Of a stretch of DNA of 64,000 bases, positions 6,155 to 39,692 are shown in pieces. Numbering within the stretch: the stretch's first letter is position 1; every line of letters starts with the position of its first letter. The stretch comes from Candidatus Dormiibacterota bacterium (lineage in GTDB: Bacteria; Chloroflexota; Dormibacteria; Aeolococcales; Aeolococcaceae). The translations under genes and the position numbers were made by a program. A model generated the notes under the pieces. It searched no databases. It was not told the DNA's origin and saw only the letters and a program-made list of their open reading frames with translations. Location: the NCBI GenBank assembly GCA_963718525.1, contig OY970355.1:128001-192000 (forward strand), written 5' to 3'.

Positions 6155-6366
6155 CGTTGGCCTCCCGTTCCCCGTGATGTTGACGTGAAGCACTGGACCC
6201 CACGGATGCGGCCATTATGCTGGGGTCGCACCAGCGATAGCCCCTAGCTCACGGGACACCTGCCCGAGGCGCACGTGCTTGCTTGGATCGCGGCCTCAGA
6301 CCTCGGTGTCGTGGGGCCTCTGGGGACATCACCCTCGCCTGGGCCGGCGTCTTCTCCCAGCGCGCT

Positions 6367-6510
6367 TCAGAGCCCGATCCAACCTGCGCCGCCGAAGACG
6401 TAGCTCAGGAGAAGGACTACCGCGATAAAACCGAGCGGCACGGCCACAACCACCAGCCAGAACACGCGATGGCGAGCTCGACGCACGTCATGATCGGTGG
6501 GGAAGGCCAC
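6367..6510 (-). CDS. putative single-TM microprotein (47 aa)
   Basis: GTG..TGA ORF read by hand: basic stretch followed by FWLVVVAVPLGFIAVVLLLSYVFGG. Confidence 0.4.
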   Translation of the reverse strand: MAFPTDHDVRRARHRVFWLVVVAVPLGFIAVVLLLSYVFGGAGWIGL

Positions 6511-6603
6511 GAGGCAATGGTAGACGCCGACGTCCGCGTTGCAAGCGCGTCAGGGGTGATTGACGGACCCTGGCCTGACCTGCCCACCCCTTCCTCGGCA
6601 ATC

Positions 6604-7123
6604 TCAGGGCGCGGTCGTCACGCTCACGTTCTGGATCGAAACGCCCCACCGATCGAAGATCGGCGTGATGAGTTCACTAACGGAGCTGGCGATACGCTCC
6701 GAATCGGTCGAGCCAGCGCCCGGCGTAGCTGCCCTCACAGCAACCCGAAGCTGCTGAATGATCGCAGTAGGTAAATCTGCAACTGCCATGGCAGCAACGC
6801 GTGGATCCTCCGCCTTGCGGCTTGCCCGCACCCAGTACGTCGGTTCCGCTTCCGGTGCACTCGACACTGGCCAGTCACCCGTGTCGATCTCCGCAGGCAC
6901 GACTGCCAGGCGACCATTTGGGAGGAAGTGCCACCCGGGAGATAGAACCGCTTTTGCCGACGGCGTGATCGAACGGTGATCGGGAACGACGCCGAACCAC
7001 CCGGTCGGAACATGGCGGACCGACCATCGAAAACTCGCTTGTCTTCTTATGTCGCGAGGCGACCGCAGGCGCAGCGGAGGATGCTGAGCACGAGGTTGCT
7101 GCGGTTCAGGGGTATCGCCCATG
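6604..7123 (-). CDS. hypothetical protein (cassette)
   Basis: ORF between two sites; probable start MGDTPEP. Confidence 0.5.
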
Positions 7124-7434
7124 CCGCGATGATGCATCAAGGAACAGAGATCTGCTCCAAGATACATTGCCGGATGCTGGCCTGTTCTGGTACGCCATCG
7201 CTTGACCGCTTATGTCTTCAGGTCAACCTCCGGCGTTCACCCCGGCGCCAAGTTGGGCAGCGTCTTCGAAATCCAGTCACACGGCGCAGCCGGTCCATCA
7301 TCAGCCTGCTCGCCAATGGATTAACAGCAACGATATGCTTGACGCACCGGCCTAGGAACTCGGTGGGTGGAGCTTCTAGCAATCCGCGCCGCGCTAAAGC
7401 CGGAATTGCTCCGGAATGGGGAGTTGACCGAGAC

Positions 7435-7635
7435 CTAGTGCGTCAAGAAGCTTTCGGCCCGCTTCTTACGCCGGTGCTCGTCTAAGAAGGATAGGGGCGC
7501 TGCAATCGCGAGGCATATCCCCCCGCCAAGGAAGAGAGACCGTATCGGTTCCAAATTCCCAAAGATAACCAGCACGAGAACCGCTACGCCGAACGCACCT
7601 GCCAGTACGGACAACCCCCGGGCTATGGCTCGCAT
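7435..7635 (-). CDS. small 2-TM membrane protein
   Basis: Two hydrophobic helices and a basic C-terminus. Confidence 0.6.
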   Translation of the reverse strand: MRAIARGLSVLAGAFGVAVLVLVIFGNLEPIRSLFLGGGICLAIAAPLSFLDEHRRKKRAESFLTH

Positions 7636-8080
7636 TCACACATCGTAGTCATTGGATCGTCCCCACGTCCACAGTTGTCCCTCGAACGGTGCGTCAGACC
7701 GGGGGCAAGGCTGGCGGCGCGGGAGGCGGTAGTGGTGGCGGCGGCGGGTTCGGCTTGCGCGTCGTGGCAATGGCGATCACTACCCCTACGATCGCCACGA
7801 CCACGATCACAAGCAGCAAGAAGAGGACGTAGTTCGGGGTTACTAAGGTGATCTCCGGATCCTAACCTACCGTTCCGACAACATAGGCAGGGTCATCGTA
7901 CGTAGCTACGTTACTGGCCTTCCGCTTCTCTCCATCGATGTGGACCCGACGGCATGCCCTCTGGGTACATTTGCCGATGCTCGCCTGCGGAACCTTTGCC
8001 TCCTTAAGCGTCTCCGAGTGGGCCAGGGCATTTACGGCGCCGAGTTGGTTGGTACTACCGTCGACCTGCCGCCCGCGCCC

Positions 8081-8521
8081 TTAAGTGTTGGACACCGGGC
8101 GAGGCGGGAGCGGAACCGTCGCTCCGTAGCTGCCGTCGACGATGGTGACATTCACTTGCTCGCTGGCATCGAGCGCTGTAGGGACCTGAATGATGGTCGT
8201 GGTCGCGGCTAGGTCGGCTGGACAGGCGGCGCCGTCGGGCGGGAGGTCGGTGGTCACCGTCACCGTGAGCGCGTCGTTCCCGGACACTTTGAGTCCACTT
8301 GGAAGGCCCGGGCACCCCGAGCTACCCCAAGTCAGCACCGCCATCTGGCCGGCTGTCACCCATAGGGCATTGTCGCGAACTCGCTCAGGAGACAACGTCA
8401 CGCCGGGTGGCAGACCGAGGTAGTGGCGCACCAGCCACGGAGGACTGGTTTCAGCACCGCAGGCGCCGGCGACAATTATCAGAACCGTCCCGGCTAGGAC
8501 GGACAAGAAACGCGGATTCAC
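8081..8521 (-). CDS. putative lipoprotein
   Basis: Signal peptide with AGAC lipobox; WGSSGCP and ACPADL motifs. Confidence 0.75.
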   Translation of the reverse strand: MNPRFLSVLAGTVLIIVAGACGAETSPPWLVRHYLGLPPGVTLSPERVRDNALWVTAGQMAVLTWGSSGCPGLPSGLKVSGNDALTVTVTTDLPPDGAACPADLAATTTIIQVPTALDASEQVNVTIVDGSYGATVPLPPRPVSNT

Positions 8522-8660
8522 GTGTGTAACGTATGCGAGACCAACCCATCGGCGAGGTTCAGGCGAGTGGATGACCCGTTGGCGAGCTAACTATGACTGC
8601 TATCGACCCCACGAAAGTGAGGTTGCGTAGCCCGGAACCTTCCAGGTTCGGCCTGCGCAG

Positions 8661-8689
8661 CTCAAGGTACATTTGCGGACACTGGCCTG
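8661..8689 (+). repeat. representative cassette-boundary motif
   Basis: CTCAAGGTACATTTGCGGACACTGGCCTG, preceded by a TGAG...CTCA hairpin starting near 8618. Confidence 0.9.
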
Positions 8690-8701
8690 AGGAGGACCCG
8701 C

Positions 8702-9055
8702 CTATCCGGCCTTACGCCGAAGGCCTGCTGGAATCGCTGTCCAGACCGCTTCCCGATCGCGCTTGCGGCAGACGAAGGTGAGTTGCCGCGGCCGAGCAAA
8801 GAGCCAAGTCCATGGACCCCACCGGTGATGCCCTTTCACCCGCGCGCCGAAGCGAAACCGAATTCCACCACGGAAGGAATCGACTGAGCGGACCTGCGCC
8901 CAATCGAAGGGGAAGGTCGGAAGGAAGATGCTCAGGATGACAGCGGATGGTCCGATGGTCCAGCCCGTTTCGCTGAGACTCAGCCTTACCAGTGGCCATG
9001 TTGCGGTGCGACCCCACGTGGCGCGAATGCCGCCCACGAACGATTGGCTGCTCAT
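8702..9055 (-). CDS. hypothetical protein (cassette)
   Basis: ORF MSSQSFVGG.. fills the interval between the 8661 and 9098 sites. Confidence 0.55.
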   Translation of the reverse strand: MSSQSFVGGIRATWGRTATWPLVRLSLSETGWTIGPSAVILSIFLPTFPFDWAQVRSVDSFRGGIRFRFGARVKGHHRWGPWTWLFARPRQLTFVCRKRDREAVWTAIPAGLRRKAG

Positions 9056-9233
9056 CGTCGTCCATTCTCCAGCGCCTTCGGGCCGCAGAGATCGCAATCC
9101 GGCGACATTGGCGGATGCTGGCGTGACCGAACGCCGCGTGTTCGGGAGTGGCGCTCCGCCAGCTCTCGCCACCCCTTCTTCCGCCGCGTCGATGGTTCGC
9201 TGTCCCCACGAGCCTATCGACCCATCGCTTCGC

Positions 9234-9519
9234 CTAGGTGCCTTGGTCACCGTTCCCAGGCGACAACATCCTGACGAGGAAAACGGCGCTCACTGCAAAT
9301 GATCCTATGGCCCATAGCACCCAGTTCTCTGGCTGCGCATAAATGAACGTGAACCCAGCTACAGCCGCGATGGTGCACGCCAGCCAAGGGTACTGACCAA
9401 CCCACCACATGACCAATTTCTCCGTTACTGGAGCCCGGTGGTTCCGCTCTTGCGCCTCCGAGCCTGGTAGGACGAAAGGAACCCCCACGCGCTCAGGACG
9501 AATGCTCCCACCATCCATG
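9234..9519 (-). CDS. small membrane protein
   Basis: Two TM-like segments at the C-terminus; start uncertain. Confidence 0.4.
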
Positions 9520-9634
9520 CGATCCAATTCGGGGGTTGCGTGTGTATGCGAACGCGCACCCGCCCAAGAAGGCGATGATCGCCATGAGGCCGGGGGTTTT
9601 ATACGCGAGGAACCACATAGAGAACTCCCCGCGC

Positions 9635-10327
9635 CTACGGGCAGGACTTCGGCTTCGTGATTGCTCCCGCCGCGCCCCATTCTGTGAAAGAGACGGTACT
9701 CGCAGAGACAGTACTGGTGGCATAGCGCATATAGCGAATCGGCAATCTCTGGCCGATCGGTACATCCAGCTCGCGACCTACACCCTTGAACACATTCACG
9801 TCTACGCCATTCACCTTGGATGTCCCTTGGAGTGTCATGCTTGGGGCGGCAGCGGAGATCACATTCGCGAGGCCACCCGGGCTGAACGAAGCATTGAGCT
9901 CACTCGCCGACAAACCCACCTGCTTCTGCATCGTCGATGGAAATGCGATACAGACGTTCGGCCGAATATGAAAGGGAGTGGCGAATCCGGCGTCGGGGAT
10001 TGCGTCGAACGTCGGAGCGGTGAGCCCTCCGTCGCTGGTAACGCCCAGGCGGGCGTAGATCTGGACTGAGCCGTCGCCGGTGATCGTGATCTTTCCTGCG
10101 ACCGCTCCCGATGTGTCGGTGCTAATGTCGCCAATTGCCCCGGTCCCGACGTTTGCGATCACATGCACGGACATCGCTGCGCTCATGGCGAGGATCACCT
10201 GGGCATATGTTGGTGGCGTTGTGCTTACGACCTGGGCCGGGTGGGACGCGGTTGACCCACACGCTGATGCTGCCACCGTGACGGCAGCGACGGCGAACCC
10301 ACGCCGTAGCACGGCCCTTCTTGCCAT
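9635..10327 (-). CDS. putative lipoprotein
   Basis: RR-rich signal peptide with ASAC lipobox. Confidence 0.75.
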   Translation of the reverse strand: MARRAVLRRGFAVAAVTVAASACGSTASHPAQVVSTTPPTYAQVILAMSAAMSVHVIANVGTGAIGDISTDTSGAVAGKITITGDGSVQIYARLGVTSDGGLTAPTFDAIPDAGFATPFHIRPNVCIAFPSTMQKQVGLSASELNASFSPGGLANVISAAAPSMTLQGTSKVNGVDVNVFKGVGRELDVPIGQRLPIRYMRYATSTVSASTVSFTEWGAAGAITKPKSCP

Positions 10328-10694
10328 CGGGCGAGAGCCTACTAGCCCAGATCGCAGGCCAGGGCACCCGTAGCGCTCCTCCGAACAGAGTTGTTACCGA
10401 GACGTCTGTCTGCTTTCGCCGATAGCGGCGGCCGCACGGCGGCGAGCATCTCGGCGGTCGCTAGGTCGGTGACGACGCAGCATTGCGCAGTCGTGCTGCC
10501 GGCCCGAGGAGGGCCAATGTCTTGCCGCTCAACCGCGACGAGCGGCCTGGCCGAGCAATGTGTCGTGGCCGCCTGGCAAGGCCGTAGAGGGCGACGGCCC
10601 TCGTCGAGACATTCACGGATGCTCGCGCGGGCGACCCTGCATGTCACTGGTGGGTGCCGGGCAAATTAAGGCTGAGATCGCTGAGCCGAAATGC

Positions 10695-11135
10695 TCAGGA
10701 GTTCAATGCCACACCCATTTCGTAAGCGTCGATCGAGGTCGTCTCTTGGAAATCGACCGGCAGTCGGACTAGGAGTGCGGCCGCCCTCAGGGCAGCGTCC
10801 GCGATGTCACTGACTGAGACCGGAGCCGAAGGAACGGTTAGACGAGCGTACGGTGGATTCTTGGTCAGGCCCCAGTCGAAGCCGAAGATCCCCCGCCGCG
10901 CCGGCTCGATCCACGAAGAGTAGTCACAGTCCCCTTCTGGACTTCGGGCGCAAGGGCCAAGGACGGGGAGCATGTCGAGACGCTCAACGGCGGCGTCGAC
11001 TTCGGTCAAATGATCGGCAACAGCTTTCGGTATAGGGCCATAACCTCCGGAGCTGAATAGCCCGACGTGGCCGCGAAAATCTACGCCAAGCCAGTCAAGT
11101 TCGAGGCCTTGTCTAGGATGCGTGAATTGAGGCAT
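10695..11135 (-). CDS. hypothetical protein (cassette)
   Basis: DWLGVD..GHVGLFSSGG..RRGIFGFDW motif; flanked by sites. Confidence 0.7.
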   Translation of the reverse strand: MPQFTHPRQGLELDWLGVDFRGHVGLFSSGGYGPIPKAVADHLTEVDAAVERLDMLPVLGPCARSPEGDCDYSSWIEPARRGIFGFDWGLTKNPPYARLTVPSAPVSVSDIADAALRAAALLVRLPVDFQETTSIDAYEMGVALNS

Positions 11136-11191
11136 CAGCGAAGCTGATCCTGTCACAGAAGTGACGGCTTAAGGCACGATTCCTCTGCCAT

Positions 11192-11220
11192 CTCAAGGTA
11201 CATTTGCGGATGCTGGCCTG
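11192..11220 (+). repeat. cassette-boundary motif (near consensus)
   Basis: CTCAAGGTACATTTGCGGATGCTGGCCTG. Confidence 0.9.
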
Positions 11221-11252
11221 CGTCGCCGTCGCGTCCCTAGCCGAGAAGGTCA

Positions 11253-11969
11253 TCAGTCTACGGTCCAGTTCGTGCGAGACAAGTCTTGGAGTGATCCGGA
11301 CACACTATCGGCATGGGAATCCAGGGGCATTGGCTCCTCGATCGCCACGCGGATAGCCGACATTCCCAATTGTTTCGCGGGAGCGATGTCGAAGCACTCG
11401 GAGTTCCCGATCATCAGACACGCTTTGGAAGGGACCCCTGCTCGTTGCAGGGTCAGGTCGAAGAATCCTTTGCTCGGCTTGCGCCACCGAATATCGACTG
11501 ATGAGGCGACGACGTCAATTAGGCCGTCAAGCTCAAACGACCGAAAATCCGCCCAGTAATCGGCTTCGGTTCGCCAGATGGCGTTCGAGGCGATCACAAT
11601 CCTCGCGCGTCGCGCCTTGAGGACTGTTAGCAAAGCTCGTGCCCCCGGCAACAGGTGGGTAAAGGCCCTAGCCGGCAGGCAACTAGCCGAGCGGATTCTG
11701 TCAGCCTCGATGCCGGTAACGTTGGCGCAGCCCGTCGCCTCGTCAATTGCTTCCCACACATCGAAATACGAGGCGCCTACTGCTCGATCAATCACACGAT
11801 TAAGCTGCCTGCAAAGTTCGGCAGCTCGGTCCTCCGGGACACCCGCGCGGACCAAGCTTAGTCTCCATTCCGCGCTGTCTCGATCGACTGGGTTCAGCAC
11901 CGGCTGCGACCAGAGGGTTCCGCCCACGTCGACCCGTACGGCTCGCGGACCCGAGCTCGTGTCTTGCAA
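11253..11969 (-). CDS. HAD-superfamily hydrolase
   Basis: DVGGTL motif I, ASN, RKP, MIGNS..DI. Confidence 0.85.
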   Translation of the reverse strand: MQDTSSGPRAVRVDVGGTLWSQPVLNPVDRDSAEWRLSLVRAGVPEDRAAELCRQLNRVIDRAVGASYFDVWEAIDEATGCANVTGIEADRIRSASCLPARAFTHLLPGARALLTVLKARRARIVIASNAIWRTEADYWADFRSFELDGLIDVVASSVDIRWRKPSKGFFDLTLQRAGVPSKACLMIGNSECFDIAPAKQLGMSAIRVAIEEPMPLDSHADSVSGSLQDLSRTNWTVD

Positions 11970-12256
11970 GGATTTCAGCGATTCTAGTCACCTGCTCGGC
12001 GAGCGCGAATTCCTCGCTGGACCGCCTCGCCTCGCACGCCGCGGTCGCAACGCCGGGTACATTCCCGGACCCTGGCCTGAGCGACGGTGGTCGGCTTGGT
12101 GGGAGGAACGGCCGGGCCCCGCTCAAGGCTCTCGGCAACACACGCGGCTCAGCGGAAACCGCTCTTCAAACCGGAACGTGATGAGCTCGATCCCAAGCCC
12201 TTCCTGAGAGTGACCGTTACCTTCTGGCCCCCTGCCGGGGTCATATGTGCAGAACA

Positions 12257-12798
12257 TGGCAACGGACGAGCAGGAACTGCCCATGGGGAGGTCGGTCGGC
12301 GTGAGTTCCGAGGAGACCGCGAGCCACGACGAGGCGGCTTTCGAGAAGGCGCTCCTCGCCGCCCTACGACCGGCATTTCGAAGTCTCCGTGCCATCGGCC
12401 TGTCCGAAGAGGACGCTGCCGACGTACTGCAGGATGCCTCGATCCGTGCGTGGCGGCACCGCTCCCAGCGACAGGGTGACTTCGCGGCGTGGTTCATTGC
12501 CATCGCCTATCACGAGGCGCGGCGCCCGCACCGCCGCTGGCCCGCAATCCCGGTCCTATGGCAAGGAGCGAGGAGCTCATCGGAGCAGGAGTGGCGAAAC
12601 GATGACCTCGACCGCGCTCTGGCGCGGCTGCCGACGCGGCAGCGGACCGCGATCTCCCTGCGCTACGGCAGCGACCTGACGATTCTCGATGTCGCCCGCA
12701 CATTGCGCATCAGTGAGCCTGCAGCGAAGCAGTTGCTTGCTAGAGCACGCGAGTCACTCCGTCGAACGCTGTCATCGATTCCGAGAGGTGAGCCATGA
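12257..12798 (+). CDS. ECF sigma factor
   Basis: DAADVLQD..RAW, FAAW, LARLP.RQR..LRY, region-4 HTH. Confidence 0.9.
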
Positions 12799-14081
12799 GC
12801 GATGACTTCGATGTGATGTTGGGGACACTGAATTCCCGCCCCCTCACTCCGGCTGAAGAGGGCGCGCTCGCTCGGGTGGAGCTGTTCGTGTCTCGGCACG
12901 ACTTCGCGACGCCCCGACATCCGAGACTTGCGCTCGAGCTCCTCGTTGCCGGCGTCGTCGCCGCGGTGGCGATCACGTTGATCGTGGCGCTCACCCATCA
13001 TTCGGTTCCAACGCCAGCGCCCGCGGGCCACACTCCGGTGCCCATAGCCTCCGCAACCGCGAGCCCTCCCGCTCCAACGAGCCCGCGTCTGGGGCCGGCT
13101 ATTCCGTTGCGCATCACGCAGCAACTGAGCCTTGGCAGCTTCCAGGCCAACGCGATAACCGTTGGTCTGGGCAGCGTGTGGGTTGCAGCTCATAGTCCGG
13201 TATATGGGGACACGGGCAGACTTTTTCGCGTCGATGCGTCGTCGTCTCGCCAGACTGGATACTGGACGGTCGGGGGAGACCCGGAGGCGGTTTCGGCCGC
13301 CGGCAGCTACGTCTGGGTGGCCAACGGCTTCGGCGATGGTTCGCGCGTGTTGCCCGATCAGAACACGGTCATGCAGTTCAACGCTGTCACCGGAGCTCTG
13401 GTGCACGTGTATCGAATCACGAGCCCCATCGCCCTGGTGGCGAATGGAAGCGGCGTACTCGTCGTGTCCTCGCGTACGCAAAATGGTCCGACCGACATAT
13501 ATCTCCTGACCGCCGGACGGTCATCGCTCGTCGCGACCGTGGCGGGGATCTTGCAGGGTCCTTCGCTGTCGGCTGAGGCCGCACTCGCCGTCTGTGGTGG
13601 CCAGGTATACCTGGGCGTGAGCGAGCTGTCTGCGAGCGGACTTCAGACCATCAACATCTACGCGGTCCGCCTGGGCGGCGGACCTGTGCGGAGCCTCGCG
13701 ACGATTCAGCGTGCGTACTGGCCGGTGATGACATGCGATACCAACGCCCTCTACGTCTTCGATGGGGCCGGAGATCTTCCGGTGCTGGTGAGCCCTGTGG
13801 ACGGCAGGACGCGCACGATGCCCGAAGGGTCGGGCGCTTCGGCAGCCGCATTCGAATCCGGGTTCATCTGGCAATTGCACAACGCTTATGGTCCCTCGGG
13901 ATCGCAGGGATCGCAGGGATACCTGTCCGCGCTGGACCCGAACACTGGCCTGGAGTCATCGTCCCGCCTCGCGATTCCGGGCACTGCGTCGTCCGAGGTG
14001 TTCCTACTCGCCCCGGTTGCGTCCGGCTTGTGGGTCGTCGGCGGCAACGAGGCCCTGCTTCTGCACGTGACTTTCGGCTAG
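12795..14081 (+). CDS. putative anti-sigma factor: TM plus extracellular beta-propeller
   Basis: ATGA overlap with the sigma gene; TM, Pro linker, SVWVA repeats. Confidence 0.75.
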   Translation: MSDDFDVMLGTLNSRPLTPAEEGALARVELFVSRHDFATPRHPRLALELLVAGVVAAVAITLIVALTHHSVPTPAPAGHTPVPIASATASPPAPTSPRLGPAIPLRITQQLSLGSFQANAITVGLGSVWVAAHSPVYGDTGRLFRVDASSSRQTGYWTVGGDPEAVSAAGSYVWVANGFGDGSRVLPDQNTVMQFNAVTGALVHVYRITSPIALVANGSGVLVVSSRTQNGPTDIYLLTAGRSSLVATVAGILQGPSLSAEAALAVCGGQVYLGVSELSASGLQTINIYAVRLGGGPVRSLATIQRAYWPVMTCDTNALYVFDGAGDLPVLVSPVDGRTRTMPEGSGASAAAFESGFIWQLHNAYGPSGSQGSQGYLSALDPNTGLESSSRLAIPGTASSEVFLLAPVASGLWVVGGNEALLLHVTFG

Positions 14082-14347
14082 GCCTCCTGAATCCCAACGC
14101 GGCGGACCACGCGTCCACGCCATGATGGCTCACTGTCTCATCGAGTATCCGGCCGACTTTGATCATGCTCTGCGCCACAATTGACGACCTTGCTCCTAGC
14201 GATGACGCCGGGCATCGTCCGTCAGCACCGTCGTGGTATGCCCGTGAACCCTTTAGGTTGGCCCACGGCAACTCACGTCCTCGAGGTACATTCGCGGACC
14301 CTCGCCTGTGCCAGCGTTGCCTGCTTCACGCCTTCCGATAGGCGAAT

Positions 14348-14629
14348 CTAGGCAGTCTGCCGCTCAGCGAGCTCTTCAAAAAGGAATCGCGACACGTGTC
14401 GGGCGCCGCGAATGCTACTCGGTACGAATGCACGATCGACCGCGAAAATTACGCCACAGAGCCCGACCGACAACACGCACCCGACCACGCAACTCTCCCA
14501 CGCCGCGAAGCGGGGAGGCGTGAAGGTGCACAAATCACAGGGATATCTCATCGAAGCCATCCAGAGGCCAGCCACGATGCCGGCGGCGATCACCGCCACC
14601 CATTGCATTGCCGTCTGAGCGCTTCTCAC
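14348..14629 (-). CDS. small 2-TM protein with Cys-loop (paralog family A)
   Basis: GLW..CDLC..RFAAWESC, similar to the ORFs at 26529, 29045 and 37684. Confidence 0.65.
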   Translation of the reverse strand: MRSAQTAMQWVAVIAAGIVAGLWMASMRYPCDLCTFTPPRFAAWESCVVGCVLSVGLCGVIFAVDRAFVPSSIRGARHVSRFLFEELAERQTA

Positions 14630-14678
14630 GGACTGGAATATACCCGACCGTGTCCAGCGCGTCCCAGCCGCTTGGACG

Positions 14679-15010
14679 GTGTCAGACGCTCAAAGCCGAC
14701 TTGGGGGCGGCGACGACATCAACACCCGGCGTTGGATGTCGGAAGCGGACCTCGCCAATCGTCCCGAACTTGCACGAATCGCAGTGATGAAGCTCGCTCG
14801 TCAGTGGGGCCCGGCAGATTGGGCGCGGGGCCTCGCCGCCTTCGTTACCGCTGGCAAGAGCATTCCTGAGGCCTTCGCCGGCATCGCCGAAGTGGCGATG
14901 CGCCTGTCGCAACGACTGGGCGCCAGCCCGGCGGTCACCGCTGCGATGGGTCACGCTTACGCTCGTTGGGACGGCAAGGTGTTCGCCGATCTGCCGTGCG
15001 GCGATGGAAA
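14679..15010 (+). pseudogene. fragment of an HD-GYP-type protein
   Basis: EVAMRLSQRLG..HAYARWDGK; truncated. Confidence 0.55.
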
Positions 15011-15075
15011 CTTCGCGCTGAGGTCTGAGGTTCGTCACTCTCGTCTCAATTGCACCGGAAGGAACGCGTGGCAAG

Positions 15076-15645: not shown

Positions 15646-15765
15646 CGAGGCGCGCGCGTTGCACCTGCCGTCGGAGACGCACCAGGGACCTCGTAGCGGT
15701 CCAGCGTTGTCGGCGCAGCATATCGTCGCCATCCTTTGGGCGCTGCACAAGGCCAAGATGAGCGG

Positions 15766-18857: not shown

Positions 18858-18869
18858 TATCACTGACCG

Positions 18870-30976: not shown

Positions 30977-31242
30977 CTACGTATGGCATACGCCGCCGAT
31001 GCTTGCATCCGACTGCTCCGCGCATTGCGTGTCGCGCCGAGATGCAACGCACCGTCCACCGTGAAGGCTACGCCGCTTCGGAGAACGTGCAGCAGGGTCA
31101 CCACTGTCATCTTGCTGACAGTTGAGTGGTGGTTCAGCTCCCCCGTCTCCCGTCGAAGAATGGTCGGCGCGACCTTACAGTCGACAGCTGGCATCGTACA
31201 GACGTTCACTATCACGACGAACCGCCTTGTGGCTAGCATCTG

Positions 31243-31638
31243 GTGAGGCACATCCTTAGTCCGTTGACGAAGGGGATCATCCTCGTCCCGTTTGCAGGCT
31301 TCTTCCTGTGCGGCTGCGGAACTGGCTTCACACCGGTCACCTGCACCAATCAATATGGCGTGACGCGAACCTGGTCGTCGTTACCGTCCGGCATCTCCGG
31401 TGGGCTCTTTGGCGCATCGCAGGCGTCCATTCAGGGGTCAATCGACAAGAGCGCTGGACCGCCGCCGGTGAACATCAGATATCCCGTGCTAAGCGCCATC
31501 GCGGAGGGGGTCGATCCGGTCGATGCAGCCCGTATGTTCGGACTAATTACCATCGCGGACCCCGGCGTTCCGACCCCTGCTCAAATCGCCAAAGCCGAGG
31601 ATCCTGCCACCTACGGCTGGACCTGCCACGCCGCGTAG
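31243..31638 (+). CDS. putative lipoprotein
   Basis: LCGC lipobox. Confidence 0.6.
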   Translation: MRHILSPLTKGIILVPFAGFFLCGCGTGFTPVTCTNQYGVTRTWSSLPSGISGGLFGASQASIQGSIDKSAGPPPVNIRYPVLSAIAEGVDPVDAARMFGLITIADPGVPTPAQIAKAEDPATYGWTCHAA

Positions 31639-31811
31639 CGGAGACCGACCTACTCCTGTTCGACCCCGACCCTTCCGTCCAGGAAACCTCTGCTCGAGAG
31701 TGGTGCGCGTGGGAAGACACCCATGTCTCGCTCGCTCCGGGTCACCAGCCTAGGCGGTGGGAGGGGACCCGGATGGGCCCCCGTCCCGACCGCCAGTCAC
31801 GCCGACGGCGC

Positions 31812-33614
31812 TTAGACCTTGCCGATCAGCGTGTTCCAGTCGCCACTGACGCTGTATTGGGAAGCGACCCAGATGTGGTTCTGGTCGTGTCCGAAGCCGT
31901 CGTAGGACGCAGCCTCAAAGTCGCCCCACCTCGAGTCAAAGGTCGCTGACGGACCCTTGATCAGGAACTTGGGGGTGCCGAGCGCTCCGAGCGGGGAGCC
32001 AGCGGACTGCTGCGCGACCATGATGCTCGGATTGAGTGTGCCGCTCATGGTGTCGAAGACCATGACCAGGCGGCCCTTCTTGTCCTGCATCATCGCGCCA
32101 AACGACGCGGCCTGGTCACCGGCGAAGGCCAGGTATCCGTGCTGGTATAGGTTCGGAAACGGAATGGAAGAGAAGTGGGTGACCTGGATCTGTCCCCAGA
32201 GGATGCCGGCGACGAACGAGGAGCCGCCTGCGCCGCCGTTGTTCACCACCGTGTCCAGTGAGAAGGAGATCAGAGGTTGACCTCCCCCGACGCTGTAGAC
32301 CGGCGTGCCCGTGATTCGAGTGTCGATCGTTTCGACGCACTGCACGCAGCCGGGCTCGTCAGCATTGGGTGGAGACGCGTACGTCGGGCTGCCGACGGGC
32401 GGATCTGCCAGGTTCCCGCCGAGCGTCTGGTTGCTCGGGTCGTACGCCCACACGACGAACCCATGGCACGCCGTGAAGAAGCAGTCATCCCCGAACGGGT
32501 CCCCGAAGATGTTGAACGCGTTGACCAGGTACTGGACACCCGGGTCGTTCGCCGGAGTCGTCTCGGTCTCCACTGGCTGGACCGTGTCGACGGGAACGCT
32601 GCCGACCGTGAGGTCTGTGAAGGCGACAGACGTGACCGGGTTGCCGGCCTCCATGGTCGCCTTGTCAGCAAACTGGACTTCAGCGAAGTCGTAGTTGCCG
32701 GTTGTGAAGTCGAACATGTTGCCGGTGAACGAGATGGTCTTCCCGCTGAAACCGAACTGCGTGTAGTCCGCGCCGGCGTTGACCGTCCCGCCCAGAGTCA
32801 TGTCGAAGTGGTACACGTGCTGAACGCCGGTCGCAGGGTTGACGACCGCGACCCAGTAGATGGAAGTGTTCGGGCAGGATGAGCCCACGCCGAACGCGGC
32901 TGCCTCAACTTGGAGCGTCGCCGTCCAGAAGAGGCCGGTGTTGGGGTCGTAAAAGGCGCGCGGGTCACTCATGAACGGCCCAAGCGGGTCGCAATTACCA
33001 GGAAGGGGCGGAACCCCGTACCAGGTCAGGTCGTTGATCGGTCCGATCCACGGCGTGCCGTTCGTCTTGAAGATCTCGTAGGAGGTGTTGACTCCCTGCA
33101 GGACGTACTTCGGCGATGCGGCAAGTGCCATATCCGGCGGCTGGCAGCCACCGAAGTACGGGCAGATGGACGCAGAGTCGGCCATACCCTGGAATTTGAC
33201 GCCGCTGATCGTGCCTGCGCCGGCGCTCGATGCGCCGGCAAGGAGCTGCGTAGCGACCGGGGCGCGGAGTCCGGTCCTTGCCCAACTCTTGCTCGCCAGC
33301 GATCCTCGAACGGCCAGCGTTCGGGGCGCGGCTCTGAGCGCCGCCCCGGCCTTGACAGTGGGCAGATTGAAGATGTTTCTCGTCAGGGCCGGAACGGCGT
33401 AGTTGCCAGCGTGATGAGCCGTGGCCACCGCAGCCGAACCGCGTGCCGCAGCGGCGCCGCCGGCGCTGCTGAACATCGCGACGAGTACGGCGAGCGCGGC
33501 GCCGAGTGCCGGGACGACGCGCGCGCCTCTCGGCCGCGACGCAGCGCCCTGTCGATGACGGGCACCGCCTGCGGAAAGCGCAGGCAGCGTCGACCTATGC
33601 TTGAAGACCCCCAT
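31812..33614 (-). CDS. large secreted protein
   Basis: Signal-like segment; PPDMALA, SDPRAFYD, DY.QFG and SRWGDF motifs. Confidence 0.8.
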   Translation of the reverse strand: MGVFKHRSTLPALSAGGARHRQGAASRPRGARVVPALGAALAVLVAMFSSAGGAAAARGSAAVATAHHAGNYAVPALTRNIFNLPTVKAGAALRAAPRTLAVRGSLASKSWARTGLRAPVATQLLAGASSAGAGTISGVKFQGMADSASICPYFGGCQPPDMALAASPKYVLQGVNTSYEIFKTNGTPWIGPINDLTWYGVPPLPGNCDPLGPFMSDPRAFYDPNTGLFWTATLQVEAAAFGVGSSCPNTSIYWVAVVNPATGVQHVYHFDMTLGGTVNAGADYTQFGFSGKTISFTGNMFDFTTGNYDFAEVQFADKATMEAGNPVTSVAFTDLTVGSVPVDTVQPVETETTPANDPGVQYLVNAFNIFGDPFGDDCFFTACHGFVVWAYDPSNQTLGGNLADPPVGSPTYASPPNADEPGCVQCVETIDTRITGTPVYSVGGGQPLISFSLDTVVNNGGAGGSSFVAGILWGQIQVTHFSSIPFPNLYQHGYLAFAGDQAASFGAMMQDKKGRLVMVFDTMSGTLNPSIMVAQQSAGSPLGALGTPKFLIKGPSATFDSRWGDFEAASYDGFGHDQNHIWVASQYSVSGDWNTLIGKV

Positions 33615-33779
33615 GGCCCACCTCCTTGGTCGGGCAAAAAGCGCCCGTTTGACCAGATCGATACGGGTGACCCGCACGATCGGTTCGGAGTCATAGTCGT
33701 TCGAGTGGGCCTCTGTCAAGCATTCGGACGAGGTCTGTCCCCCATGGATTGAGCGCGGCGCGTGTCATTCTCGTGGAGA

Positions 33780-34291
33780 TGAGTCGAGCGATGGCGCGAC
33801 CCGCCACTCGAGCGGTTGATGACGCGTTCTTCGAACGCTTCTTCGCCGACACCTGCCAGATGGCGGTTGGGGCGGTCGCGGTGACCACTGGGGACGTCGG
33901 CGCCGCTGAAGACGCCGTCCAGGAGGCGTACCTTCGAGCCCATCGCCGCTGGGCGAGAGTCTCGACACTGGATCGCCCCGACCTTTGGATCGTCAGGATC
34001 GCCACGCGGATTGCGGTCTCCAACTGGCGGCGCCACCGGCGCGAGACTCACCTCAGTAGCGAGTTGCAAGCCGAGGTCGCCGACAGCATCACCCGGATCT
34101 GGACCGAGTGGGGGCTCGAGGCGCTCAGCCCCAAGCAGCGCCGAATGGTGATCCTCCACCACATGCATGGACTTCCCGTCGCCGACGTGGCGAGAGCTGC
34201 GGGGTCCTCGACAGAGACGGTGCGGACTCACCTGAAGCGTGCTCGCGTGCGCCTTCGCACCCGATTCTCCGATGAGGATCGTTATGACTGA
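33780..34291 (+). CDS. ECF sigma factor
   Basis: AEDAVQEAYLRA..RW, LSPKQR, TVRTHLKRAR. Confidence 0.9.
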
Positions 34292-34979
34292 CTTGAAGCG
34301 CGATCTGGAAGAGGTCGGGAGGGCCGTCTGGCCGGCCCCCGAACAGGTTCGGCGTCGCATGATCGACCGCGGCTCCAGGCGTTGGCGTTCTCGCAGGACC
34401 TTCGGGGCAATCCTGGCCACCGCTGCGATTGCAGCAGTGATCGGGGCCGTTTCTGCCCCAGCGATCATTGCTGTGGAGCACGATCTGACGTCGTTATCCA
34501 CGTCGGCGCACCCTGCGCCTAGTGTCGGCTCCGCCGCGCAAGGATCGAGTGGCCGCTTCACCGGTAGACAGGGTGCGACAGGTCCATCGACACCCACGGC
34601 ATCGGCAGGTCACAATGCGCCGCCGCCGGCGGTCACTGTCTCGCCGAGTCCCACCGTCCACTCGCCCTCGAGCGGCGTGTCACTCGTCCTCACGCAGCAA
34701 AGCAGGGGAACCTACTTTGTGACTCTGGGCTCCACGATCACCGTCACCTTGACCGGCGGCACGAGGAGTGACCCCTGGATGATGCCCACGAGCCGGCCCG
34801 ACCAGATCGTCCATTTCTCGCGCGGTGACCGGTCGAGCGGTGGTGATGCCACAGCGACGTTCGTCGCCACCGCCTTCGGCCAGGCGACGATCCAGGCGTC
34901 CCTCTCCCGCGAGTGCCCACCCTTGTGCGGCGGAGGACCCACGTACATTTGGCACGTCCAGGTCAGCGTCGTCGCGTGA
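34284..34979 (+). CDS. putative anti-sigma factor: TM plus chagasin/I42-like domain
   Basis: Overlaps the sigma gene; TM, S/P linker, beta-rich C-terminus. Confidence 0.65.
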   Translation: MTDLKRDLEEVGRAVWPAPEQVRRRMIDRGSRRWRSRRTFGAILATAAIAAVIGAVSAPAIIAVEHDLTSLSTSAHPAPSVGSAAQGSSGRFTGRQGATGPSTPTASAGHNAPPPAVTVSPSPTVHSPSSGVSLVLTQQSRGTYFVTLGSTITVTLTGGTRSDPWMMPTSRPDQIVHFSRGDRSSGGDATATFVATAFGQATIQASLSRECPPLCGGGPTYIWHVQVSVVA

Positions 34980-35099
34980 CCCCGGCCGTCTCGTGCCCAG
35001 TGCGTCGAGGGGCTCCTGAGGAGGCGACAGGACGGCAGTCTCGAGGACGTGACTTATCACCGGACTCGAGTTGGCACCTAGACACGGAGGTTAGTTCGA

Positions 35100-35381
35100 A
35101 TGGCCGACACCGACTTTCTTACTGCTGGTCAGGCGGCTGCGCTCATTGGCATTTCGCGATCCACTGTCCGCCGGGCTGTTGCTCAGGGACACCTGCTCGC
35201 GTGGCATACGCCTGGAAAGCATCTCCGTGTCGTCCGCGAAACGTGCCTCGAGTTTGCGCGCGACTTGGGGCGCGTTGACCTCGTGGGCCGCCCGAACGGT
35301 AACCCGTCGCCGGAGTGGCTTCCCGAGCTGGCGGCCGCCCGCAACGAGGTGCTCGGCGGGCATATCCCAGCGAGCACATAG
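35100..35381 (+). CDS. excisionase-type (HTH_17) DNA-binding protein fused to a RidA fragment
   Basis: LTAGQAAALIGISRSTVRR..TPGKHLR, then PEWLPELAAARNEVLGGH. Confidence 0.75.
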   Translation: MADTDFLTAGQAAALIGISRSTVRRAVAQGHLLAWHTPGKHLRVVRETCLEFARDLGRVDLVGRPNGNPSPEWLPELAAARNEVLGGHIPAST

Positions 35382-35582
35382 GTCGGTGTAGGCGCTCTCG
35401 CCCAGGACCACTTTCTCGTTGAGGTCGAAGCGGTAGCTGTCATCGACTAGACGAAGAGACCCTGTACTGAAGCGACGTTCGGCCGATGAGGCGCATATTG
35501 GGCACCCGCTGTTCGGCTTGCCCCGTGCACCGATGCACCTCCCACTGGTACCGCTCGAACGACATTGGCGGATGCTCGCGTG
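35309..35582 (+). repeat. near-identical copy of 27185-27458 (ridA 3' half, spacer and boundary site)
   Basis: 274-bp colinear match ending at the motif TG; TTG changed to TAG at 35379. Confidence 0.95.
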
Positions 35583-35625
35583 GACAACTCAGCCGTCATT
35601 CGGCTGCGAGCGGATTCTGTGGGCG

Positions 35626-36786
35626 TCAGCTGCTGAATATGTAAACGGCGCCGAAACCAGAGTTGGCGTTTGGAGCACCTACGAAGATGGCGCCCGTGGA
35701 CAACGCTACCGACAAGCCAAACTCATCTCCCGCCGCGAAGCCGTGAAGAGCGAGCCTCGGGGCGCTGTCCCATCCGGACCGAGACTTGGCAAACTCATAG
35801 GCCGCACCAGCGGTGAATCCGTTGATGGCGCCGACCCCAACGCGGCTTCCCAATACAGTGACCGAGGCCCCGAACTCGGACGCAGCCGTTCCGTAGACGG
35901 CAAGTGTCGGAGTAGTCGTCCATCCTGCAGCGCCCCTCGTATACACATACGCAGCACCGTCGTTATCGTTGTGAAATATCGCACCCACGACGAGGGTTGT
36001 GGCATCCATAGCTAACGAAGCGCCAAATTGAGAATATGTCGAGTGATCGGCGAGGGTTGCGGTCGGAGTCGTATCCCATCCCGCACTCGACTTGGTGAAG
36101 ATGTAAGCGGCTCCCTGACATGATTTAGCGCACGGAGCACCAACCGCGGCGAAGTTTCCGCTAAGAGCGACGGACATCCCGAAACCCGCAAACCCGGACC
36201 CGATACGGGGGAAGACTGCAGTCGGCGCCGTCTTCCAACCGGTGGAGGTGTTTATGAAGACATACGCTCCGTGACCAATCGTGCCGGCCAGGACGGTGCT
36301 CCCCGAAATCGCGACCGACCACCCGAAGCTCGCGAAGGTCTCAGGTCCTGTAAACACAACGGTCGGGGTCGTTTCCCATCCGCTCGCTGTCTGGGTGTAG
36401 AGATATACGGCCCCGGTACTGGAATTACGACCGGGTGCGCCGATCGCCACCGTCGCTCCCGAAATTGCGACAGATGCCCCGAACTCGTCACCCGCCGTAA
36501 CCCCGTGAAGCACTGCGGTTGGGGTCGTGTTCCATCCAAGCGAGGTCTTCGTGTAGAGATACGCCGCGCCGGCATTCGACCCTGCACCCGCGGCGCCGAT
36601 CACCGCGCTTGTACTTGACACCGCAACTGCGTTCCCAAAGTCGTCGCCAGTGGAGGCCCCGCTCAGCGTTGCGAGCAGGTGCCCAGGAACTGCGGTTGCA
36701 CCGGTCGCCGCGCTGGCAGACTGCGAGCCGCCGATGACGCCCATGGTCATCGACGCGGCAACACCGGCTGCGAGTAGAAACCGCAT
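35626..36786 (-). CDS. secreted FG-GAP repeat beta-propeller protein
   Basis: Signal peptide; repeated FG.SVA.SG..GAP..GAAY units. Confidence 0.9.
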   Translation of the reverse strand: MRFLLAAGVAASMTMGVIGGSQSASAATGATAVPGHLLATLSGASTGDDFGNAVAVSSTSAVIGAAGAGSNAGAAYLYTKTSLGWNTTPTAVLHGVTAGDEFGASVAISGATVAIGAPGRNSSTGAVYLYTQTASGWETTPTVVFTGPETFASFGWSVAISGSTVLAGTIGHGAYVFINTSTGWKTAPTAVFPRIGSGFAGFGMSVALSGNFAAVGAPCAKSCQGAAYIFTKSSAGWDTTPTATLADHSTYSQFGASLAMDATTLVVGAIFHNDNDGAAYVYTRGAAGWTTTPTLAVYGTAASEFGASVTVLGSRVGVGAINGFTAGAAYEFAKSRSGWDSAPRLALHGFAAGDEFGLSVALSTGAIFVGAPNANSGFGAVYIFSS

Positions 36787-37683
36787 GCCCATCCCCCTCA
36801 CTGCTTGAAAGAGGGTTCAGCCTATCAGGTTGCTGGATCGTTTCCTCCCATTGGCATGTCCTCCCCAAGAAGCTCGTGTTGGTAAAGCCGGGTGTCTTAG
36901 TGTCTGGGGTGCTGCTTCGAGCTATGAGTACATTCGCGGATGCTGGCGTGCGTCAGTGTCATTCGGTTCCGCGAACCGGCCCAGCCCCGCGCGGCCTATC
37001 GGAGGCCCGGGCGGCGCCGGTCCAACCGCAGATCGACGTTCTCGATCGGCTCGAGTGGCACATCCGCCGCCGCCGAGGCGAGCAGCGACGGGGGTGCAGG
37101 CGCTAGCGGGGACGGTCGTCCGGAGCCCTCGGCCCGGGAATCCGGGCCTATGTCCCAGGACCTGCCGAAGGATGGAAACTGGCGCGATCTAGCGCGAGCC
37201 ATCCGTAGGATCCGGTGAGCGCCGCGCGATATGCTGTGAACAGCTCCTCGCCGAAGGCGGCGCACAACCGTGTCAGGGTGCGAGAGGAGCGCATAACCCG
37301 TATATGGCATTCGCCAATTCTGACTCTTCTTAGAGTTTGCCGCTGTGTTGCGCTGCAGCCATCGAGGATCACTTCGGGATGCTGGCCTGGGCAGCGCTCC
37401 TCTCCGCAGTCGGTTGCGTTTCTTGCGGAATCAGCCGAAACCAGAGATACGATCCTGCGAGACCCGGACGCTCCCTTCGTCGGCGAGCTGACGTGTAAGA
37501 GTCGACACGTACCGGGGTGCCCGTCAAGGGATATTTGCGGACCCTGGCCTGGCCGATTTTCGCTTCCTCGGCCGGTCGCCGATGCGGCCAGTTGGTCACT
37601 CGATTGAGCGGGCCGAACGTGCCACGGCACGGCCTCGACCAAAGCCGCTCAAGCGGCATGGGGCAGCTGGCTGGTAAGGCCTC

Positions 37684-37944
37684 TCAGCCTGCCTTGTGTG
37701 ATCTCGCCGACGGCAGCCGCGTGATCGCGAAGGACAGTAGGAGCAAGAAGGCTGCGGCACCTGCACCAAACAAGGCGCATTGCCAGATCGCAAAGGTGGC
37801 CCTCTCCGAGAGTTTGTCGAGGCAGATCTCTCCCCCAAGGGAGCATTGGGTCGGGTAGGTCACGAGCTGCGCGGTCCACAGACCAATCGCGACCCCGACC
37901 GGCGCCGACGCCACCCGAAGGACAAGCGCGAGCAGGCGCCTCAT
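37684..37944 (-). CDS. small 2-TM protein with Cys-loop (family A)
   Basis: LRVASAPVGVAIGLWTA..C......C..TFAIWQCALFGAGAAA. Confidence 0.75.
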   Translation of the reverse strand: MRRLLALVLRVASAPVGVAIGLWTAQLVTYPTQCSLGGEICLDKLSERATFAIWQCALFGAGAAAFLLLLSFAITRLPSARSHKAG

Positions 37945-38186
37945 GCAGTAATGCTATCGCCGCGGCTCGTCTGCTGAGACCCCGGGGGGGAGTAACCCTG
38001 TGTTTGGGGTTTGCGTCCTCACGGTTTAGTGAGGCTGCGCAGCGCTCAGGGTACATTCACGGATGCTCGCCTGCGCGAAGGGCGCTTCGCTTCGACTAGG
38101 CTGACAGCCGAGCTAGAAGACTGGAACGAGGCGCAGTCCATGTCGACACCGTCGCTGCGTCACGTTGAAGCGCCACGTCCGCCGTA

Positions 38187-38738
38187 TTACTCCGCAGAGT
38201 TCTCGACAGGGTCGGGTCCGAACGTTTCCTCCATCCATGATCCGGTGCTCACCGATCCAACGCTTATAGACCTTGGGAGAGCTGGGCGGAAGCCAGTCAC
38301 CAGGCAGATAAATACCACGGTCCAGATCACCGAGAGCAAGCGCTCGATCATCAACACCCCGCCAGGTTCGGCAATGACGTTGACGACCGTCGCCGCTGCT
38401 TCCACCCCAAGCGCACTTGCGGTTAGCGCCACGCTCCACTGCATGCGGGCCGAAAGAGCAAGACCCCCCATGGCTGCAAACGCAGCAGCGCAGCTCACGA
38501 TGAACGCAGACGCCGCTTCAACTCGCACGGCGACGGGATAGGCAAACGGCTCGCTCGGAAAGCTGACAAACCCGCTGGGAGGTATGTTCAAGACCTCGCC
38601 GAGAGACACGTTTGCCAGCAGCAGTCCAGAAGTGGCGCTGAGCAGCGAGAATCCAAACACCACGAGGCCGAGCGTCACAGGATCTGGAGTCCACCCGTGA
38701 GTTGGGAATCGCCTCCACACAGCAGGGACTCTAGCGAC
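38187..38738 (-). CDS. membrane protein
   Basis: 4 TM segments; start uncertain. Confidence 0.55.
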   Translation of the reverse strand, partial: VARVPAVWRRFPTHGWTPDPVTLGLVVFGFSLLSATSGLLLANVSLGEVLNIPPSGFVSFPSEPFAYPVAVRVEAASAFIVSCAAAFAAMGGLALSARMQWSVALTASALGVEAAATVVNVIAEPGGVLMIERLLSVIWTVVFICLVTGFRPALPRSISVGSVSTGSWMEETFGPDPVENSAE

Positions 38739-38958
38739 CAGCGATTCTTCCGTGGGGGATGTCTGGTCGTTACGGAAGCGACTAAACCTGACCTGGGGCG
38801 TCGTTGCCTCGATGACTTCGGCCGTCGCTACGAGACATTTACGGATGCTGGCCCGAGCGAGCAGGTTGCCTCCAGGCCGACAGCGGCGGTTCCGCGAGAC
38901 AGCAGCGTGCACGCGCCACACGCGAGAGGGTGAGTCGTTCTCGCGGCGAGGGCCTGCG

Positions 38959-39489
38959 TCAGTGCCAGAGGAGACGGAGGGTCGCATTCATGCCCACTCG
39001 CGTGCCGCGAAAGCTCACCACCACCATTGCGAGCGCAGCGATTGCCGCTGCAAGTCCGCCACCAACAAAGGGATAGAAGCCGAAGGTGATCGGCGGTGGC
39101 GCTCCGACGCCAGTGAAGCTCCCTGGCCAGGTTACAGCCACGTACGTGGATATCAGGGAAGCTGCCAATGTAACCACGGCGGTGATCCGCCGGCAAATCC
39201 TGGCGAGATGAGTCGCGGAGGCTATCCCCACTACGACGAGAAGCACGAGGACAAGCTGCCCACGGCCACCGGCACTCGCAACGAGACTTTCCGTGAGGGG
39301 CGGCGCAGGGGGGCCGCACACCAGGCAGTCTCCCCAGGTGATCGCAACAAAAGGCAGGAATGCCGCCCAACTCATCACCGCGACCGCGCCCAGACAGACC
39401 GTCGCTGGGACGATGGCGGCCCACGTCGCTCGAGCACGCACCCGTGCATCATCGCGTCCCGTCTTCGGAGGACCAATCGGCGTAGCCAA
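38959..39489 (-). CDS. membrane protein
   Basis: 4 TM segments with a CLVC loop. Confidence 0.6.
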   Translation of the reverse strand: MATPIGPPKTGRDDARVRARATWAAIVPATVCLGAVAVMSWAAFLPFVAITWGDCLVCGPPAPPLTESLVASAGGRGQLVLVLLVVVGIASATHLARICRRITAVVTLAASLISTYVAVTWPGSFTGVGAPPPITFGFYPFVGGGLAAAIAALAMVVVSFRGTRVGMNATLRLLWH

Positions 39490-39692
39490 GATGTCACGAC
39501 ATTAGGGATGTCGACCGTTTTCGCCTACGACGCGGCGGCCGGCCGCGCACACTTCCGCGCGGGGGCACGCCCATGGGTGACGCGGCAGGGGTCGAGCTTC
39601 CCGGACCGTCAAGAGGCATTGGTGGACCCTGGCCGGGACAAACATCCTGGCGTCGGCAGAGGTAGGGTTCGCCAACTGTAGACTTGGCGTGA

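Follow-up and report, generated by a model that had tools for sequence, protein, structure and literature searches.

Gene-cassette arrays bounded by probable large serine recombinase sites in a Candidatus Dormiibacterota genome

Integrons and clusters of attC sites lacking integron integrases (CALINs) are defined with reference to the integrase IntI, the attI site and the attC site. A second group of systems accretes DNA in tandem at attachment (att) sites of large serine recombinases (LSRs). In staphylococcal cassette chromosome composites (SCC and SCCmec, with CcrAB or CcrC), as described in PMC11470126 and PMC13739063, an LSR element and recombinase-less cassettes form a tandem between att sites, where one element's recombinase mobilises its neighbours; SCC cassettes are tens of kb long, carry many genes, number few per locus and lie at rlmH. 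The ssrA islands of Dehalococcoides (DsiB) are also tandem, many of them without an integration module, and cis-mobilisation has been proposed for them; in the account of PMC3146451 a 20-bp copy of the end of ssrA bounds them, they lie at one fixed gene, their integration module has six genes and their cargo is large. Cis-mobilizable elements (CIMEs) and the integrative, mobilizable elements termed IMEs, as summarised in PMC5704250, accrete site-specifically with cis-mobilisation of recombinase-less elements, and CIMEs keep both attL and attR, arising by decay of whole elements at a gene end. Here, we analyse a 64,000-nt stretch of a Candidatus Dormiibacterota bacterium (assembly GCA_963718525.1, contig OY970355.1, positions 128,001 to 192,000; hereafter the window), in which a co-oriented repeat, most likely a hybrid site of an LSR, delimits two arrays of mostly one-gene cassettes. 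Coordinates without a prefix refer to the window, G000 is its source genome (3.34 Mb), and other G and L numbers denote other genomes and loci.

The repeat was first noticed as a ~29-bp motif in a single array of about 30 co-oriented sites at 6262..39517. Matches to the motif core on the + strand of the window number 14 when exact and 23, 27 and 30 at one, two and three mismatches, with none on the − strand at any of these four levels (0–3 mismatches). A weight matrix found 31 sites on the + strand between 6549 and 40333 and none on the −, and no site in any of 20 first-order Markov copies of the window, so the recurring + strand motif is real. The proposed extent ended too early on the right, where sites at 39608 and 40284 lie beyond it. 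A central TG is kept in 26 of the 31 sites and lost in five, and the sites are spaced 162 bp to 6.1 kb apart with gene-bearing intervals. The rest of the genome holds seven further good sites, five clustered at 2747509-2750054 and singles at 1876870 and 2204334, bringing the total to 38, confined to four places. Because only seven good sites lie outside the window, the repeat is not a dispersed repetitive extragenic palindrome (REP) or miniature inverted-repeat transposable element (MITE); neither dispersal in both orientations nor the short constant spacers of CRISPR were seen. Scanning of relatives, which the initial annotation had proposed as a check, also found clustered sites, in both orientations at a few loci. 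An Rfam scan of the window matched only a tRNA.

The site is longer than first described. Over 172 sites from relatives, numbered with the A of ACATT as 0, a weak consensus extends to +41, giving a site of ~50 bp with a weakly conserved right half after TG (+19/+20). Among 30 inversion axes tested, +17 was the sole positive, pairing -7..+2 with +32..+41, and the distal boxes lie 17 bp and 12 bp from TG. Both halves are built from two boxes, TCNRGGKASA distally and GGATGCTSGCN proximally, with five extra bases between them in the P half. In the A118/LI integrase model, the zinc-domain box is 5 bp nearer the central dinucleotide in attB than in attP (Rutherford et al., PMC3783163). Since the 17- versus 12-bp box distances match this offset, the array site can be read as P half-TG-B' half, the attR type, and the repeat is most likely, on its sequence, a ~50-bp attR-type hybrid site of an LSR. 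As in LSR systems, the sites span 40–50 bp, the distal box of a P half stands 5 bp further from the centre than that of a B half, and the crossover falls at a central dinucleotide with clade-specific pairs TG, CA and GA. Folding of the 31 sites gave a mean z of 0.04, with 2 of 31 below -2, and attC core pairs are no commoner in the 34-kb array (two) than in the 23-kb flank (two), bearing out the earlier statement that attC sites are absent. The site types found are attL, attR and attB; no attP junction was seen among the LSR-adjacent sites, read-derived contigs and viral contigs examined, the viral contigs having no motif match and only four distant LSRs. A P-half match with CA near genome position 1113200, inside a long open reading frame (ORF), was taken as chance.

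No recombinase family recurs beside the arrays in 25 loci. A query with the LSR beside one array led to an LSR clade in which the start codon falls within a mirror site, B-TG-P', of the attL type. The query enzyme itself (L038) was rejected as the cognate recombinase, as it has no P' half at its start, and a weak genus-wide match to it is a gene that we take to be RadC-like. The cognate LSR has 466 aa with Resolvase, Recombinase and zinc-ribbon domains, and the mirror-site LSR occurs in 6 of 41 genus genomes (G006, G003, G010, G020, G047 and G057, one of them frameshifted) and in metagenome contigs. In 15 of 15 LSR-start sites, which were chosen by P' half and central pair only, the spacing of the left half is that of B, without the 5-bp linker, and these left halves vary. 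Two copies in G020 (L112 and L149), 99% identical, diverge leftwards from the base before TG. Most of the LSRs are followed by a convergent rolling-circle Rep gene and then by a P half ~2.6 kb from the LSR start. The Rep matches PF23343 and phrog_3419 in all four tested, and its alignment contains motifs that we presume to be HUH and YxxK; its predicted structure (pLDDT 61) gave no Foldseek match at E 0.001. Two platforms are complete, L162 with LSR, Rep and 14 sites and L217 with LSR, 15 sites and no Rep hit, and in both recombinase-less cassettes stand in tandem with the recombinase-bearing element. In L112, L113, L126 and L162 the P' half has TAATGT six bases ahead of the LSR ATG, resembling what we take to be the -10 box of a leaderless promoter, and circle formation could alter the upstream part of this promoter-like stretch.

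If such a core leaves by attL x attR, orphan arrays should start with B-TG-B', a prediction stated before it was tested. An attB model, with left halves taken from attL and right halves from array sites, placed attB-type sites at 6319 and at 21228; two other G000 clusters are preceded by such sites as well. The head site of array 1 (6319..6362, + strand, TG at 6340-6341) scores 27.1 and that of array 2 (21228..21271, + strand, TG at 21249-21250) 28.6, and only six sites on both strands of the genome reach 25 or more. Because each has its own attB-type head, the window holds two arrays, where the initial annotation had one; its co-oriented sites stand and its single array does not. Array 1 (6319..16489, +) comprises the head site and 10 P-TG-B' sites with 10 cassettes, and array 2 (21228..40333, +) the head site and 21 such sites with 21 cassettes. 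The 4.7-kb site-free stretch between them (16490..21227), with an ABC transporter and an Imm5-like gene, is probably host hotspot DNA rather than a cassette; an Imm5-like gene lies near a PHP gene without sites in G010 and G052. A site scoring at least 16 lies within 1.5 kb in 17 of 39 array rows; the opposite strand gave 0 of 39, and such a score was reached in 0.2% of 2000 random windows. With 6 LSR-linked rows and 5 internal gaps set aside, 28 heads remain, of which 17 have a site at this distance and 20 have one when the limit is 6 kb. Four of the head cassettes also occur in other arrays, where they are internal. Further attB-type sites with scores of 21–32 and no adjacent P sites lie at G000:C1:1870631, 1871821, 2196466, 2212637 and 1397822.

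Cassette mobility was followed in 194 inter-site units (median 643 bp) cut from the window, the other G000 loci and the loci of relatives. In 22 unit pairs the match covers at least 80% of the length, and identity is 80–99% in 21; three window cassettes are among the matching units. In junction pairs (23 left, 19 right) the neighbouring cassette is different in every one, and identity switches between +15 and +21, positions up to +15 following the upstream cassette and those from +21 the downstream one. The same cassettes thus recur between genomes with different neighbours and with breaks inside the site, which upholds the initial proposal of a site-specific gene-cassette system other than an integron. 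Some unit pairs share only a start or only an end. A 274-bp stretch, 94.9% identical, occurs twice in the window, at 27185-27458 (the end of the RidA cassette) and 35309-35582 (the end of a 6.1-kb unit), each copy ending at a site TG; given these shared sequences, reuse of cassette ends is suggested. Exact matches to the pattern are present in 20 of 24 genomes of the genus and in 0 of 16 sister-family genomes; a draw from the whole phylum gave them in 3 of the 17 family genomes, one of which, G328, is flagged as unpublished, and in none of 383 others. The arrays lie at varied, unrelated loci, and the largest stretch has 35 sites in 33 kb.

Site anatomy, cassette mobility, crossover position, the site-LSR link and the attB sites at array heads, all as read from sequence, are consistent with a mobile core of ~2.6 kb that would consist of attL (B-TG-P') over the LSR start codon, the LSR, the convergent HUH Rep gene and a P half, and that would serve cassette units of the form B' - gene(s) - P. 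In this scheme, which needs canonical LSR reactions only, the core would excise by attL x any downstream attR. The resulting circle would carry attP and the intervening cassettes, and an attB would stay behind at the head of the remaining array. Rep would copy the circle, which would then integrate by attP x attB, either into the head of another array or into some loose attB-like site of the chromosome, placing its cassettes in front. Because TG is not symmetric, the cassettes would be stacked in one direction, and repeated visits would stack and reorder them, the window representing two orphan arrays left by such visits. We consider it probable that arrays grow and are reshuffled at their heads in this way, by a core that leaves together with the cassettes as far as any attR, is replicated in circular form and enters again at an attB head. 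The order of the reactions, the circles, the role of Rep, transfer between cells and the first entry of a new gene between B' and P are what we infer.

Several observations weigh against this account. A good attB is absent at 8 of the 28 LSR-less heads, and the first P site of the core is often weak and is destroyed in L113, L126 and L145. Position +18 follows the downstream cassette somewhat oftener (0.78 versus 0.58; expected 0.54); with this ambiguous position leaning downstream, the TG is not fixed by cassette pairs alone. Site clusters in both orientations occur at a few loci (L029 and L032), where opposite clusters meet within 1 kb. Where array and head sites are concerned, the geometry counts are in part circular: the models had been trained on these sites or selected for them. 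Most LSRs need a directionality factor for attL x attR, and none was recognised in the ORF lists of the core. TndX-type enzymes, according to PMC5704250, act without one. No circle was seen, the LSR-adjacent sites examined all having a B half on the left. For excised circles joined at the motif, as envisaged in the initial annotation, read-derived contigs (4 runs, 1 study), which cover all 30 bins across 21100-41000, gave no trustworthy joint. Of three joints, two are at sites, and they are no evidence of excision because their short side of 21–28 letters is explained by the motif alone. G000 has no cognate LSR (best 44–45% identity, with a different upstream half-site) and no Rep. With the LSR present in 6 of 41 genus genomes, this means that array action in G000 is past or in trans, and the window array is most likely an orphan whose mobile element has left the genome.

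The same LSR could instead act as an integron integrase does, single cassettes excising by attR x attR as non-replicating circles and re-entering any site, with the LSR-side attL as the equivalent of attI. Single cassettes do swap both neighbours, P halves are highly conserved deep in the arrays, and Ccr recombinases are described in PMC11470126 as excising tandem SCC-like cassettes singly, in pairs or all together. A change of both neighbours is, however, also expected over two rounds of head integration by a replicating core, and the B-TG-B' sites found at orphan heads are not predicted by single-cassette exchange. Free single-cassette circles are further argued against because the LSR structural model, as presented in PMC3783163, permits attR x attR in antiparallel only, which the asymmetric TG cannot resolve. 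We regard this alternative as rather unlikely. A good deal less likely still is passive accretion, in which the units are LSR-Rep elements that were inserted at the head and decayed by deletion of the core, as in CIMEs, with no re-mobilisation. Integration, decay and reintegration is the published tandem model for IMEs and CIMEs in PMC5704250, and the loss of TG in 5 of 31 window sites would fit it, yet the window arrays hold no LSR or Rep remnants, units start cleanly at the B' half, and the same cassettes occur at up to 99% identity in different arrays and genomes. That another enzyme (a tyrosine recombinase, IntI or a transposase) or regulatory motifs account for the repeat is highly improbable: a tyrosine recombinase gene does lie 7 kb from the array and others near two small G000 clusters, but all three adjoin tRNA genes, none of five tested reaches the integron-integrase cut-off, no recurrent family accompanies the 25 loci, the sites lack hairpins and attC cores and are oriented independently of the genes, and only one LSR clade has its start overlapped by the mirror site.

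Individual candidates in G000 were also set aside. The LSRs at 2467627 and 1001826 have upstream half-sites that differ. The tyrosine recombinase at 47400-48557 is linked to tRNA-Gly and not IntI-like, and no tyrosine recombinase recurs beside arrays. Neither of the two IS110 copies lies near sites, and there is no Y1 transposase. The region G000:C1:2463400-2473000 (L066) carries a further LSR, which may have its own site family, as its upstream half-site differs; its neighbours are IS110 and what we take to be an ECF sigma pair, an IS256-like element and a replication-initiator-like ORF.

To place the enzyme, a tree of 74 rows was used, in which rows L152 and L154 are likely to be mistranslated. 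The TG-type enzymes, together with the long-branched, site-less L038, make up a clade (98/97); this clade is nested in a 38-row group (95/96) with unresolved inner order. This group includes LSR-Rep elements whose left flank encodes HGVLFLDE, in a gene that we take to be comM/YifB. The B halves resemble the HGVLFLDE-coding stretch, and that of G000 scores 22.2 as attB with TT at its centre. The Mg-chelatase/ATP-dependent-protease gene class is the target of 12.4% of site-specific LSRs in the survey figures of Durrant et al. (PMC10083194). In the same 38-row group, Chloroflexia elements have GA and Thermoleophilia elements CA, and co-oriented sites of that pair follow each. A GA pattern derived from four sites of one Chloroflexia genome has 24 exact matches in five clusters in that genome and 9 in another, so that 2 of 5 genomes have several. 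The TG-type system may descend from comM-targeting elements; the tree itself gives no direction. A broader and tentative reading, which we hold to be possible rather than probable, is that minimal self-replicating LSR-Rep elements with comM-inserting kin became an integron analogue, shuttling single-gene cassettes among chromosomal libraries in at least three soil lineages (Dormibacterota, Chloroflexia and Thermoleophilia), with a lineage-specific central dinucleotide separating the pools and possibly with attR-type recombination without a directionality factor. G016 has a comM-like gene interrupted by a different LSR: C20 (L068) holds one half, next to that LSR and to a short cluster of sites at the end of the contig, and C12 (L025/L026/L226) holds the other, beyond a 35-site array that starts at the contig end. 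The large G016 array may be cargo of a comM-inserted island.

The attR-type sites of the window are all on the + strand and come from the weight-matrix list, site 11 also from motif-core matching. Those of array 1 lie at 6549..6598 (site 1), 7156..7205, 7959..8008, 8661..8710, 9097..9146, 10601..10650 (site 6, central pair CG, probably decayed), 11192..11241, 12051..12100, 14280..14329 and 16440..16489 (site 10, the end of the array). Array 2 has 22185..22234 (site 11, degenerate and one base out of register), 22952..23001, 23603..23652, 24191..24240, 24620..24669, 25227..25276, 26015..26064, 26409..26458, 26780..26829 (site 19, central pair CG), 27430..27479, 28203..28252, 28870..28919, 29414..29463, 35554..35603, 36922..36971, 37361..37410, 37523..37572, 38045..38094, 38827..38876 (site 29, CG), 39608..39657 (site 30, GG) and 40284..40333 (site 31, the end of the array).

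The cargo named in the initial annotation (GNAT, VOC, DinB, RidA and HAD) is confirmed by Pfam, with ECF sigma and methyltransferase genes in addition. Eleven of the 15 Pfam-matched cassette ORFs (two below the curated cut-off) are on the + strand and four on the −, site orientation is independent of gene orientation, and one gene family is present both ways. Array 1 carries, by Pfam, a HAD-like hydrolase gene (11253..11969, −), a two-gene cassette (12247..14081, +) with an ECF sigma factor and a downstream 428-aa ORF of presumed anti-sigma role, and a DinB-superfamily/mycothiol transferase gene (15076..15645, +). The head cassette of array 2 has a permuted papain-like C92 match (21479..22174, +; Pfam, below cut-off). 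It is followed by a VOC/glyoxalase gene (22327..22719, −), of which G003 and G012 have the same cassette start and gene and G022 the gene, and by two GNAT genes, an acetyltransferase at 23047..23565 (+, Pfam) and one at 23731..24177 (+), whose entire cassette is 95.7% identical in G011 (L028) with other neighbours there. The cassette at 24647..25255 (+) is common to G012 (L040) over its full length at 84%. Further along are genes of the RidA/YjgF family (26931..27326, +) and DinB_2 (27638..28129, −), both by Pfam, and the longest unit (29441..35582, +; 6.1 kb), with a diphthamide-synthase-like gene, an ECF sigma factor, an HTH_17 gene and others. An FG-GAP repeat protein gene (35626..36801, −; Pfam), a cassette common to G022 (L034) over its full length at 84% (37550..38073, +; with a small membrane-protein ORF on −) and a class I methyltransferase gene (39693..40298, +; Pfam), the last cassette gene, complete the array. 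PADLOC gave three partial matches among 35 cassette ORFs and no sign of a defence array. Elsewhere, L036, L037, L038 and L041 have IS110-like and presumably IS3-like insertions within arrays.

Homologues of the PHP and TetR genes that flank the block are ~260 bp apart in G017, versus 35.7 kb in the window, so the array block is an insertion. An exact empty site for either array was not found, and a P site is present in 0 of 13 loci around PHP/TetR homologues. A tRNA-Gly(CCC) lies at 47128-47202, the Xer-like tyrosine recombinase gene at 47400-48557 being just upstream of it, and partial copies of the tRNA-Gly(CCC) end occur near homologous genes in G045, G050 and G020, which places the arrays in a tRNA-linked variable region. 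The stretch 18010-18537 has a copy at genome 2189823-2190351, 91.7% identical. The five-site array at G000:C1:2746614-2750103 (L021) has its own attB head and lies inside a ~7-kb island, bounded by tRNA-Gly(GCC) and an apparent copy of its end and containing a tyrosine recombinase fragment.

Set beside integrons and CALINs, the arrays share long rows of small, mostly single-gene cassettes, co-oriented sites, orphan arrays, probable growth at the head and a cargo of GNAT, VOC, DinB and RidA genes. Unlike them, they use a serine rather than a tyrosine recombinase, a double-stranded 50-bp site without a hairpin, genes in both orientations, and a mobile, probably self-replicating core in place of a fixed intI-attI platform. 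G000 has 11 matches to PF00589; the five scanned against NCBIfam reached at best a TIGR02249 score of 76 against a cut-off of 265, the others being three phage-like integrases and fragments. Thus mobile cassettes in co-oriented arrays are present, whereas IntI (among the five tested), attC and one-way gene orientation are not. Integron-like single-gene libraries can therefore arise with a different enzyme class, and attC-based surveys would miss such arrays. The arrays mark an accessory gene pool in an abundant uncultured soil group. Because its parts are identified and short (a 466-aa recombinase, 50-bp sites, the P/B code and natural central-pair variants), the system is directly testable, and the natural tolerance of many B halves together with serial stacking is of interest for genome-engineering integrases.

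Among LSR systems, SCC composites share with the arrays the tandem of an LSR element and recombinase-less cassettes. Unlike in SCC, the units here are mostly one-gene, many loci are occupied, and one LSR with an HUH Rep makes up the core; this single LSR and the varied loci, in place of CcrAB/CcrC at rlmH, set the system apart from Ccr, without a direct comparison of the enzymes. The ssrA islands resemble it in tandem arrangement and proposed cis-mobilisation, in a Chloroflexota-related host, whereas here the shared sequence is just the 2-bp crossover, no gene serves as anchor and the core comprises two genes. CIMEs share site-specific accretion, but the present cassettes have B' and P ends only and no trace of a lost core. 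Half-site layout, 5-bp distal-box shift and central dinucleotide agree with phage serine integrase att sites (A118/LI) as modelled in PMC3783163, and related LSR-Rep elements sit in the HGVLFLDE stretch of the gene hit by the Mg-chelatase-targeting LSRs treated in PMC10083194. Those integrases and LSRs are described as leaving one attL and one attR per insertion, in contrast to the dozens of attR-type sites behind one attL/attB seen here, where the targets are no longer that gene. A full-text literature search that reached few subscription papers showed, among the results listed, no description of LSR-built single-gene arrays, so that the earlier suggestion of an undescribed system holds for the single-gene form in that literature, but not for tandem accretion at att sites and cis-mobilisation, already known from SCC, ssrA islands and CIMEs. 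The array system belongs with these LSR accretion systems and is integron-like in its working.

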